The position numbers were made by a program, and so were the translations under genes. A DNA stretch of 38,874 nt from a virus (Duplodnaviria > Heunggongvirae > Uroviricota > Caudoviricetes): IMG/VR virus record IMGVR_UViG_643692022_000007. One strand, given 5' to 3'. Numbering within the stretch: position 1 is the first letter of the stretch; each line of letters opens with the position of its first letter. The notes beneath the pieces are model-generated. The model made no database searches and was not told where the DNA came from. It saw nothing but the letters and a program-made list of their open reading frames with translations. This document shows, one piece after another, positions 28,701 to 34,229 of this stretch.

Positions 28701-28973
28701 CTACCTGCCTTGACGAAAGACCTTAAGAACATCGTTAAACTGACTTACGGATATGTCTTCTTTGAGCAGCTTTTCCAGAAATGCGTTTGGAATGAACGTA
28801 TATCCCTCCTCTTTTGGTAGAGACGGGAGCAACGCCCTTGCCTCAGCCTTCAGAAGCTCAGTTCTGGCAACTTTCACAAAAGAGATTTGAGTTCTTTCAT
28901 CAATGGAACGAAGGAAGCGCAAACGCTTAACTTCTTTGTGTGTATCAGGTGGATTAAAGCCTTTGTTTCGCAT
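28701..28973 (-). CDS. Hypothetical protein between cII and the initiator gene
   Basis: About 90 aa from MRNKGFNPPDTHKEVKRLRFLRS..., GAGGT about 7 nt upstream of the ATG; no equivalent in lambda. Confidence 0.4.
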   Translation of the reverse strand: MRNKGFNPPDTHKEVKRLRFLRSIDERTQISFVKVARTELLKAEARALLPSLPKEEGYTFIPNAFLEKLLKEDISVSQFNDVLKVFRQGR

Positions 28974-31697: not shown

Positions 31698-31816
31698 AAA
31701 CAGATACCAAACGAGATGGGTTTGGCGGTGATGTGAATTGCAGCTGCAACGACAGCAACCAGAAGATCAGCATCTGGCGCATCACCACCAAAGCCATTTC
31801 ACATGAGGAAAATATC

Positions 31817-32158
31817 ATGACGGTAATCGTGTACGGGAAATCAACATTCGCAGGAAATGCCAAAACTCGCCGTCATGAGCGGCGCAGAAAGCTGGCTATC
31901 GAGCGTGATGCCATCTGCAACATCATCGATTCGATCTTCAGTACAGACAGTGAGGAACCTGTTCAGGAAGCCCCGAGAAAGCGTTTAAGCCTTTCTGAAA
32001 AAGCAATATCACTCGGAAGCCTTCGCTGCAAGAAGTCAGAAGAAGTCGAGCGTAAACAGAATCGTATTTACTACCGCAAGCCACGCAGTGAAATGGGTGT
32101 GACTTGTTCAGGTCGCCAGAAGCAACGCGGAAAATCAATTCCAGCTTATTACGATTGA
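31817..32158 (+). CDS. N: Antitermination protein N
   Basis: From MTVIVYGKSTFAGNAKTRRHERRRKLAIERD... (arginine-rich motif) to a C-terminus ...VTCSGRQKQRGKSIPAYYD resembling lambda N (ITCSGRQKIKGKSIPLI); GAGGAA before the ATG. Confidence 0.85.
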   Translation: MTVIVYGKSTFAGNAKTRRHERRRKLAIERDAICNIIDSIFSTDSEEPVQEAPRKRLSLSEKAISLGSLRCKKSEEVERKQNRIYYRKPRSEMGVTCSGRQKQRGKSIPAYYD

Positions 32159-32304: not shown

Positions 32305-32428
32305 CAGGTAACTTAAGCGTATTTACTTTCGCAGCAAACAACTTATTTGAGGTGAGATATGGAAGAAGAATTTGAAGAGTTCGAAGAGCATCCTCAGGAT
32401 GTGATGGAACAATACCAGGACTATCCGT

Positions 32429-32629
32429 ATGACTACGACTATTGATAAAAATCAATGGTGTGGACAATTCAAGCGATGCAATGGATGCAAGCTGCAATCG
32501 GAATGCATGGTTAAGCCTGAAGAAATGTTTCCTGTAATGGAAGATGGGAAATATGTCGATAAATGGGCAATACGAACGACGGCAATGATTGCCAGAGAAC
32601 TTGGTAAACAGAATAACAAGGCTGCCTGA
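32429..32629 (+). CDS. Hypothetical small Cys-containing protein (start uncertain)
   Basis: 66-aa track ORF MTTTIDKNQWCGQFKRCNGCKLQSEC...; overlaps an upstream 28-aa acidic ORF that has the better SD. Confidence 0.3.
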   Translation: MTTTIDKNQWCGQFKRCNGCKLQSECMVKPEEMFPVMEDGKYVDKWAIRTTAMIARELGKQNNKAA

Positions 32630-32669
32630 TGGTGGCCTTTATTTTTGGCATAAACAACAGAATAAATAC

Positions 32670-32709
32670 TGCTCCGTGTATTCATTCCAACGAGTGAATA
32701 CACGGAGCA
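32670..32709. repeat. 15-bp perfect inverted repeat (strong hairpin)
   Basis: TGCTCCGTGTATTCA-(10 nt)-TGAATACACGGAGCA, between the small-ORF cluster and the coiled-coil gene. Confidence 0.85.
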
Positions 32710-32798
32710 ATGTCGCTCGTAACTAAACAGGAGCCGACTTGTTCTGATTATTGGAAATCTTCTTTGCCCTCCAGTGTGGGGGCTTTTTTGATGGAGGA

Positions 32799-33770
32799 TA
32801 TATGAGTGAAGTAACAGATTTAGTTGTTATTGAAAAAGCAAATGCAATGATTGTATTTCAGTCTGCTGACCAGATTGAAGAAATTCTCCAAAAGGTTGAA
32901 CGTGAAGTTATGTCCTTTGTGCCTGATATCACAACGGCAAAGGGCAGAAAGGAGATCGCTTCTCTGGCGTATAAAGTTGCGCAGACGAAAACATATCTCG
33001 ATGGTCTTGGCAAAGACCTTGTTGCTGAACTGAAGGAAATTCCAAAGCTAATTGATGCCAACCGCAAGACAGTGCGCGATCGCCTTGATGAACTGAAAGC
33101 CAAGGCACGCCAGCCTCTTACTGATTATGAGGAAGAACAGGCGCGAATTAAAGCCGAAGAAGAAGCTAAGGCAGCAGCTGAAGCTCTCGCAAAGCAAATT
33201 GAGTCTGACCATGAAATAGCGATTTTGATGGATCGCGAATTTGACCGCCAAAGAGAAGAGGCAAGACTCAAAGCGGAGCAGGAAAAGCGAGAGCATGAAG
33301 AACGCTTAAAAAGAGAAGCTGAAGAGAAAGCCAGAGCAGAAGCCGAAGCAAAGGCAAAAGCCGAAATTGAAGCAGCAGCAAGACGAGAAGCAGAGGCTAA
33401 GGCCGCAGCGGAACGTGCAGAGCGTGAACGCATTGAAGCCGAGCAACGAGCACAGCGCGAAGCAAAAGAGGCAGCAGAACGAGCTGAAAGAGAAAAGCAT
33501 GCGGCAATTGAAGCAGAACGCCGAAAAGCACAGGAGGAGGCTGAACGAATCCGGCTCGAGGCTGAAGCAAAAGAGCAAGCCAGAATAGCAGAAGAAAAAA
33601 GAATCAAGGACGAAGAAGAGCGTAGAGCAAAGGATAAAGCTCACCGGAAAGAAGTAAATAACAAAATACTTGCTGACCTTATCAAGGTTGGCGCATCAGA
33701 AGATGTTGCTAAAAATATCATAACAGCCATCGTAAAAGGCGAAGTATTCGCAACAAAAATAACCTACTAA
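32799..33770 (+). CDS. Hypothetical highly charged coiled-coil protein with Ala/Glu/Lys/Arg repeats
   Basis: From MSEVTDLVVIEKANAMIVFQ..., about 323 aa; central ~200 aa low-complexity (AEAEAKAKAEIEAAARREAEAKAAAERAERERIEAE...); globular ends. Confidence 0.6.
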   Translation, partial: YMSEVTDLVVIEKANAMIVFQSADQIEEILQKVEREVMSFVPDITTAKGRKEIASLAYKVAQTKTYLDGLGKDLVAELKEIPKLIDANRKTVRDRLDELKAKARQPLTDYEEEQARIKAEEEAKAAAEALAKQIESDHEIAILMDREFDRQREEARLKAEQEKREHEERLKREAEEKARAEAEAKAKAEIEAAARREAEAKAAAERAERERIEAEQRAQREAKEAAERAEREKHAAIEAERRKAQEEAERIRLEAEAKEQARIAEEKRIKDEEERRAKDKAHRKEVNNKILADLIKVGASEDVAKNIITAIVKGEVFATKITY

Positions 33771-33793: not shown

Positions 33794-33925
33794 ATGATTT
33801 ACGCAATCGCGGGAGGCGCTCGCATGGGTGCCTTCCAACTAAATGAATCTTTACTTGAACGAATCACCCGTAAATTACGTGACGGATGGAAAAGAGTTGA
33901 GGTCTTATTATGCGCAATGAAATAG
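33794..33925 (+). CDS. cIII: CIII-like protein (FtsH inhibitor)
   Basis: Hand-translated 43 aa MIYAIAGGARMGAFQLNESLLERITRKLRDGWKRVEVLLCAMK; core matches lambda CIII (MQYAIAGW...ESLLERITRKLRDGWKRL); AAGGAA SD. Confidence 0.75.
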   Translation: MIYAIAGGARMGAFQLNESLLERITRKLRDGWKRVEVLLCAMK

Positions 33926-34062
33926 CCATCAATCACCAGATACTTCGTGCAGCACAGAACAAAGCAGTAATAGCCAGATTTATTGGTGATTCCAAAATGT
34001 GGCTTGAAGCAAATAAAGCGATGAAATCAGCTATCAACCTTCCGTGGTATCGCAGGAAATGA
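33910..34062 (+). CDS. kil: Kil-like protein
   Basis: Hand-translated 50 aa MRNEIAINHQILRAAQNKAVIARFIGDSKMWLEANKAMKSAINLPWYRRK; resembles lambda Kil (..IATFIGDEKMFREA..); overlaps the cIII stop. Confidence 0.55.
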   Translation: MRNEIAINHQILRAAQNKAVIARFIGDSKMWLEANKAMKSAINLPWYRRK

Positions 34063-34229
34063 GTTTTACAGATAACTGGTCAGACGAAGAATTCATTCGT
34101 CAGATGAAAGAATTAATCGGTAACGAAGGAGATATTCATGTCACTTGCAACCACAGTGAAGGAGAGCAAGTTACAGAGACGCATGTACACGCAGCAGGCG
34201 TTAATGTATCGCCAGAAGGGAGATCGTGA
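34059..34229 (+). CDS. Hypothetical small protein (P22 arf position)
   Basis: About 56 aa from MSFTDNWSDEEFIRQMKELIGNEGD...; ATGA overlap with kil; upstream of erf. Confidence 0.35.
   Translation: MSFTDNWSDEEFIRQMKELIGNEGDIHVTCNHSEGEQVTETHVHAAGVNVSPEGRS

Follow-up and report, generated by a model that had tools for sequence, protein, structure and literature searches.

In the early transcripts of phage T7, RNase III sites of the R1.1 type are nicked in the 3' arm of a hairpin beside an internal mismatch, with a stem-loop left on the upstream RNA and a 5' monophosphate on the downstream one. The sib/tI retroregulator and the N-leader RNase III site of lambda are hairpins of pL transcripts at which RNase III cleavage governs the stability of a neighbouring message. 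Small RNAs that derive from 3'-UTRs or are embedded in operons are commonly released by RNase E. Within the dicBF operon of the Qin prophage, the sRNA DicF is cut from a polycistronic transcript by host endonucleases, as far as the review citing the original work describes it (Faubladier et al. 1990, cited in PMC12197685).

The described system closest to the locus studied here is the lambda sRNA LPR1, renamed PreS, which is located between ral and ea10 and has its 3' end at tL2a (Silverman et al., bioRxiv 10.1101/2024.10.31.621285). Northern blots gave a band of ~88 nt and a stronger, processed band of ~68 nt; the RNA is bound by Hfq and made in the lytic cycle only, being absent in lysogens and seen within 10 minutes after inactivation of cI857, and it activates translation of dnaN while repressing alaS (bioRxiv 10.1101/2024.10.31.621285). 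Hfq binding, lytic expression and dnaN regulation were shown for lambda only. The start of LPR1 is placed at GAGCAATGTCG by two primers, namely P969, used for the full deletion, whose homology arm ends ...GAGTGAATACACG, and P1103, used for the T7 template, from which the RNA begins at GAGCAATGTCGCTCG; the numbering of the alaS pairing as 42–56 from +1 (Fig. S3E of the same preprint) is consistent with this primer-defined start. The words "hairpin" and "stem" have no use in the text of the preprint, which does not discuss the origin of the 5' end, and on that subject we found nothing further in a later review (PMC12197685) and nothing in a literature search on tL2/tL2a, processing sites of pL, RNase III in pL transcripts and sRNAs of the ea10/ral region.

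The stretch of DNA analysed here (the window, 38,874 nucleotides) is a mosaic P22-like E. coli phage, and all ORFs around the hairpin under study lie on the + strand. The early-left region holds an N-like gene (31733–32158, +) with an arginine-rich motif of the P22 gp24 type; it contains GNAKTRRHERRRKLAIERD, which we take to be the arginine-rich motif of P22 gp24 (P22 N peptide), and the GTG start listed for this ORF is probably too far upstream. Two small ORFs separate it from the restriction alleviation gene ral (32429–32629, +), a 66-aa ORF identical to lambda Ral, the homologues of which in lambda, phage 21 and Sf6 are annotated ral or restriction inhibitor. A mosaic joint is apparent at this place, the P22-type N-like ORF being followed by a lambda/Sf6-like block running from ral to PreS. 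Further downstream, the terminator scan identified a homologue of the intrinsic terminator tL2a (32766–32789, +), with the stem GCCCTCC/GGGGGC at 32766–32783 and T6 at 32784–32789, and the Sf6 record labels this GC hairpin and its T-run "tL2A", "homology to phage lambda". The next early-left cistron is a coiled-coil gene resembling gene 33 of Sf6 (32802–33770, +), whose true start is the ATG at 32802. Altogether, the region 32560–32830 matches 340 phage records, among them lambda at 33911–34156.

The same scan reported a terminator-like hairpin with a T-rich tail over the stop codon of ral (32618–32648, +), which is kept in lambda and phage 21. It reads AAGGCTGCC-TGAT-GGTGGCCTT with the tail TATTTTTGG and is distinct both from tL2a and from the hairpin under study; in Sf6 a sister copy is found after the inserted gene 34. 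This element is unannotated in the lambda, phage 21 and Sf6 records examined.

Between ral and tL2a, TGCTCCGTGTATTCA (32670–32684) and TGAATACACGGAGCA (32695–32709) are perfect reverse complements over 15 bp with a spacer of 10 nt, and the repeat finder lets the stem grow inward via U.G, U-A and C-G to 18 pairs. The resulting stem-loop on the + strand consists of the 5' arm TGCTCCGTGTATTCATTC (32670–32687), the tetraloop CAAC (32688–32691) and the 3' arm GAGTGAATACACGGAGCA (32692–32709), which ends in GAGCA (32705–32709), the 5 nt with which the lambda-defined sRNA begins. A previous sequence-only reading of this DNA had reported a 15-bp perfect inverted repeat with a 10-nt loop, placed between the post-N small ORFs and the coiled-coil gene; the sequence confirms the repeat, although the stem can be extended to 18 pairs and the loop reduced to 4 nt, and it confirms the placement, after ral and ahead of the ATG at 32802. 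The span given at that time (32668–32711) covers the repeat itself and, on either side, two bases too many. We found no longer inverted repeat within 60 nt anywhere in the 38.9-kb window; in 40 first-order Markov simulations of the window the longest perfect arms measured 8–12, never more than 12, and an arm of at least 15 is expected analytically 6.5e-4 times in the window by chance. The 48-nt hairpin RNA of the + strand folds at -30.4 kcal/mol, with z = -10.4 against dinucleotide shuffles. The inverted repeat is thus real, non-random and, as the comparison of homologues below documents, under functional constraint as an RNA structure.

What the sequence-only reading lacked above all is the membership of this hairpin in a known sRNA locus. 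The segment 32705–32789 (85 nt, +) is identical to lambda LPR1 from +1 to +73 (32705–32777); the seed core at about 32740–32757 is intact, and it retains both the stretch removed in the lambda seed deletion and the alaS-pairing stretch, the latter at 32746–32760. The window therefore shows the features that mark a PreS/LPR1 locus, that is a position in the pL operon, an sRNA body with the seed and a GC-rich terminator with a poly-U end. Judged by its sequence, 32705–32789 is a PreS/LPR1 homologue, and the tL2a-type terminator is predicted to be its 3' end and Hfq module. The two loci are alike in lying between ral and the next pL gene and in the sRNA body, the seed, the homologous tL2a and an orthologous hairpin, while they differ in the downstream gene (ea10 in lambda, an Sf6 gp33-like gene in the window), in the terminator (GAGGGCGA-T6 in lambda versus GGGGGC-T6 in the window) and in the stem, which has an A.A mismatch and an extra U.G in lambda and is perfect in the window. 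Rfam returned 0 matches over the whole window at the gathering score, and a permissive scan of 32400–32900 gave chance-level hits only (E > 1). A 31-aa ORF running through the sRNA (32710–32805) is unlikely to be conserved coding sequence, its ATG being ATA or ATT in the P22-group homologues.

The published +1 of PreS, which may derive from read coverage together with the ~88-nt northern band and could be a few nucleotides off, maps to G32705, inside the 3' arm of the hairpin and 5 nt from the base of the stem. Likewise, in lambda the orthologous hairpin occupies 34007–34046 and the +1 falls in its 3' arm at 34011. G32705 belongs to a C-G pair that is invariant across the four stem types described below, with mismatches on either side in most variants. 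Since the lambda sRNA is made only after derepression of pL (within 10 minutes) and no promoter-like site is seen here, the sRNA would be excised from the pL transcript. A dedicated promoter overlapping the hairpin, with the PreS +1 as a transcription start, would agree with the defined +1 used in the literature; we consider it very unlikely, because the sequence has no sigma-70-like match, the -10 and -35 elements would have to be placed in the stem, where the sequence differs wholly between types, and the timing of LPR1 follows that of pL transcripts, with absence in lysogens and appearance within 10 minutes after cI857 inactivation.

We somewhat favour a model in which the hairpin is an RNA stem-loop of the pL transcript that flanks the PreS unit on its 5' side and defines or creates the 5' end of the sRNA by an RNase III-type cut. 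The unit would be ordered as hairpin, sRNA body with the seed, and tL2a, within a polycistronic transcript that would carry N, the small ORFs, ral, the hairpin, PreS, tL2a and the next gene; tL2a would supply the 3' end of PreS, and its 5' end would be set at G32705, in the lower 3' arm. There the hairpin would direct an endonucleolytic cut at 32704|32705, most likely by RNase III nicking the 3' arm in the style of the T7 early sites, with 11 bp and a 2-nt overhang separating the cut from the loop; a partner cut leaving a 2-nt 3' overhang would fall at 32676|32677. The product would be a PreS of ~85–88 nt with a 5' monophosphate, which would favour a step of RNase E trimming to the ~68-nt form, while the ral message would keep the stem-loop at its 3' end, where it would block exonucleases. 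Cleavage at the hairpin, RNase III as the enzyme and stabilisation of the upstream mRNA are each probable rather than observed. Of the options offered by the sequence-only reading, a processing site is the one we favour, with the published +1 inside the 3' arm and the structure kept across four unrelated sequences.

The analogy with T7 R1.1-type sites lies in an intercistronic hairpin of a polycistronic early phage transcript that has an internal mismatch by the putative scissile bond; here the hairpin is shorter (18 bp), only 5 bp lie below the putative cut, and the downstream product is an sRNA and not an mRNA. Like DicF, PreS would be a prophage-type sRNA from an operon transcript, bounded on one side by a terminator or an RNase III end; unlike in this locus, as far as the review covers DicF, RNase E makes its 5' end and RNase III or a terminator its 3' end, and the two share neither sequence similarity nor operon position. 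The lambda sib/tI and N-leader sites are unrelated in sequence to this hairpin, and sib destabilises the upstream int message, whereas the present hairpin should remain attached to the upstream RNA and free an sRNA.

According to a published rule for RNase III, the two pairs between the cut sites are highly paired and include at least one G-C, and the enzyme spans ~22 bp (PMC6212723). Both the window, with C-G and G-C between the putative cut sites, and lambda, with U.G and G-C, fit this rule; if the cut is made at the same place, the P22, S149 and ES18 types do not, their two pairs being C.U and U.G. The stem has 18 pairs in the lambda/window type and 16–17 with two mismatches in the other types, against the ~20–22 bp for RNase III. 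Stems shorter than about two helical turns can still be nicked by this enzyme.

The main rival to RNase III is a cut by RNase E at or just after the loose base of the stem. In its full form, which we regard as rather unlikely, the hairpin has no more than a passive part, as a structural insulator and a 3' stabiliser: RNase E cuts a single strand just 3' of the stem or in its loose base, and the hairpin only shields the upstream mRNA from 3' exonucleases and prevents mispairing of the sRNA with upstream sequence. The poor fit of P22-type stems to the RNase III rules speaks for it, as do the stem base, which in most variants is an island C-G between mismatches (A.A on one side, C.U or U.G on the other) and so partly open, and the upstream stop codon, which abuts the hairpin in many contexts as expected of a 3'-UTR cap. 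Operon-embedded sRNAs are also commonly released by RNase E, DicF being the example in the part of the review concerned with it (PMC12197685). By inspection, however, the +1 context CACG|GAGCAAUG is a poor match, and the base of the window stem, fully paired at -29.5 kcal/mol, would bury the site. The motif of RNase E sites against which this context was compared is RN|WUU.

Predicted folds suggest a further role for the GAGCA segment. In the precursor GAGCAA is held inside the big hairpin and GAAUAA (32660–32665) pairs with UUGUUC (32739–32744), while in the mature sRNA the 5' end GAGCAA (32705–32710) is predicted to pair with the same UUGUUC, just 5' of the seed. A structural switch around UUGUUC is possible on these models and would explain the invariance of GAGCA. 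RNAalifold on the sRNA body of lambda versus the P22 group gave a weak consensus with a covariation term of -0.8, on which we did not rely.

We gathered 143 loci using the 5' block of the sRNA as the anchor, so that the sample was not selected on the hairpin. The hairpin stands immediately upstream of the PreS 5' block in 143/143 loci, in 24 sequence variants that fold at -14.9 to -29.5 kcal/mol. In the phage collection the lambda-type hairpin was found in 309 records, the PreS body in 325 and the P22-type hairpin in 47. The upstream gene is ral in only about one third of the 143 loci and in the remaining loci its place is taken by a membrane protein like Sf6 gp34 or by other ORFs, at least 7 in number, with a stop codon that often abuts the stem (GAATAA|GC...); the downstream gene is variable too. 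In Sf6 a gene is inserted between ral and the hairpin, and the hairpin remains beside PreS. Because its linkage to PreS is constant while the upstream gene varies, the hairpin belongs to the sRNA unit and not to ral.

A seed scan of genome contigs added 21 matches, mostly lambda DNA contamination, and one useful variant (L143). The exact lambda sequence occurs in assemblies of Pseudomonas, Shewanella, Bradyrhizobium, Kitasatospora, Neobacillus, Leeuwenhoekiella and others (L124–L142), several of the contigs having low coverage and a length of ~48.4–48.5 kb, which looks like contamination with lambda DNA; "Campylobacter phage CJLB-4" (MW057783, 48,361 bp) matches as exactly as lambda does. Some of the "hosts" listed for PreS conservation may therefore be artefacts.

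The site just 5' of the invariant GAGCAAT-TCGCTCGTAAC is taken by any one of four unrelated stem types. Type A is that of lambda and the window; type B, GCACCTATAGCAGATT-TACG-AGTCTGCTATGTGAGC, is found in P22, L, SF10 and mEp043; type C, ...AATGACCA...TGGTCATT..., in S149, SE21 and epsilon34; and type D, ...AATGCGGA...TCCGCATT..., in ES18. They have only the base of the stem, GCAC.../...GAGC, in common, and each folds on its own to the same architecture of a loose base with an A.A mismatch, a perfect upper stem of ~10–14 bp and a loop of 3–5 nt. In a register-matched alignment of the four types, 88% of the cells are paired versus 67.9% in shuffles, 10/18 pairs show changes on both sides, and 46 cells are changed on both sides versus 18.5 in shuffles. 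The covariation score of 0.537 compares with 0.175 +/- 0.026 in shuffles (0/500 of which reach 0.537) and at most 0.162 with slid partners, with the limit that this between-type covariation rests on about three independent replacements. The register was set by a covariance model fitted to the structure, ungapped and with the loops as a constant linker, which somewhat favours structure; plain MAFFT alignments of the four types place the arms one column out of register, and the independent single-sequence folds agree with the register of the covariance model. Within the lambda type alone covariation is not significant, with 12/18 pairs invariant and shuffles matching the observed value.

The lambda type nevertheless varies at the two imperfect pairs of lambda (A.A and U.G): base changes on the 5' arm restore pairing in the window, and changes on the 3' arm do so in L143. 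The window has T at 32673 and C at 32675, where lambda has A and T, and these bases close the A.A mismatch and the U.G wobble of lambda; the all-paired stem reaches -29.5 kcal/mol as compared to -21.9 kcal/mol in lambda. Only one other locus of the 143 shares such a perfect stem with the window, the best match of the 48-nt query to a phage record being 46/48, and the stem is a rare derived variant. In every variant the RNA of the + strand, which is the sense of the pL transcript, folds better than that of the - strand (-21.9 versus -17.0 kcal/mol in lambda), and the major variants hold 1–2 G.U pairs in the + sense with no A.C pairs and none has G.U in the - sense. The hairpin is constrained as a + strand RNA structure, not as a sequence.

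These observations bear on a role at the DNA level, in which the repeat would bind a protein as a palindromic site, form a cruciform or serve as a "boundary sequence" that favours recombination and mosaic exchange. The Sf6 record marks the segment from the hairpin to tL2a as "bsq4; boundary sequence", and mosaic junctions do coincide with the hairpin's 5' edge or, in mEp043, with the +1 of the sRNA. We nevertheless regard such a role as highly improbable, as the four stem sequences lack a common recognition sequence, the wobble asymmetry points to RNA, and the sRNA explains the conservation of the block, beside which junctions are expected anyway. Half-sites are not conserved among the homologues, the eight central pairs being replaced on both sides between types. 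The protein-binding site put forward in the earlier reading is not supported: the types have no sequence in common in the upper stem, and the pairs that depart from Watson-Crick yet still form are G.U only in the + RNA.

That reading had also raised a terminator suppressed by N, while remarking that the hairpin has no clean T-run on the + strand and is not an obvious intrinsic terminator. The remark holds, the tail being AATGTCGCTCG and a U-tract being absent in the window and in every homologue; the suggestion finds no support, as no variant has a U-tract and the N-suppressible tL2a is separate, at 32766–32789. A terminator or pause hairpin on the + strand of the pL operon, subject to override by N antitermination, would suit a strong stem on the transcribed strand, within the region of the tL2 terminator cluster. 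It has little to recommend it otherwise: the stem is followed in all four types by the conserved tail GCAAU(A/G/U)UCGCUCGUAAC and not by a U-tract, the terminator scan did not call the hairpin, whose tail in the window is AAUGUCGCUCG, tL2a is a separate GC hairpin with a T-run 57 nt downstream, and efficient termination here would preclude the synthesis of PreS from pL. The earlier reading had overlooked this canonical intrinsic terminator 57 nt downstream of the hairpin. A terminator of an antisense, rightward transcript of the - strand, or a bidirectional one, we hold to be scarcely credible. The T-rich GTATTTATTCTGTTGTTTATG does follow the - strand hairpin in the window and in lambda, but the many loci with a different gene right next to the hairpin lack this flank, the neighbouring genes are all on the + strand with no promoter-like site on the - strand nearby, and folding of the - strand is weaker in all variants.

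We also observed a diverged PreS-like unit in P22-pbi (AF527608; L145 1509–1645), between orf87 and gene 17, with the predicted sRNA homologue on the complement strand at about 28736–28840 of AF527608, and such units recur in P22, L, S149, SF10, SE21, epsilon34 and ES18 (also L147–L152). They have their own type of hairpin, a conserved GAGCAATATCGCTCGTAAC block and their own terminator, and their seed-like stretch differs from that of lambda (GTTCTGGTTA(A)T...). The conservation search of the PreS preprint was made at >=92% identity (bioRxiv 10.1101/2024.10.31.621285), and the P22-group units were probably not counted in it. In mEp043 (L146 1201–1262), L027, L050, L065, L070 and L118 a P22-type hairpin is joined to an sRNA body of the lambda type, and in the mEp043-like loci similarity switches at or just after the +1 of the sRNA (GAGCAAT). 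From these sequences, the conserved stem base appears to act as a recombination joint between modules.

We tentatively extend the model to a wider family of operon-embedded phage sRNAs, lambda-, P22- and ES18-like, for which the hairpin could be an obligatory, sequence-independent "excision cassette", although we think it somewhat less likely than not. If this is true, cleavage within the GCAC/GAGC base, the conserved part of an otherwise exchangeable stem, releases a PreS-type sRNA and caps the upstream message, and the P22-group homologues with diverged seeds are an unrecognised, Salmonella-adapted branch of PreS.

The hairpin is most likely a processing and boundary element of the PreS locus. 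As an element it is not described in the searchable literature, while release of an operon-embedded sRNA from a structured site is of a familiar kind. PreS ranks with the earliest phage sRNAs for which reprogramming of an essential host function, that of the replication clamp DnaN, has been shown, and how it arises from the pL operon is undescribed; the hairpin gives a testable handle on its biogenesis and bears on the coupling of sRNA release to the fate of the upstream ral message. The P22-group units extend the PreS family to Salmonella phages, and in the annotation of lambdoid and P22-like genomes the block should be labelled as hairpin, PreS and tL2a, and not as a bare terminator or a "boundary sequence".
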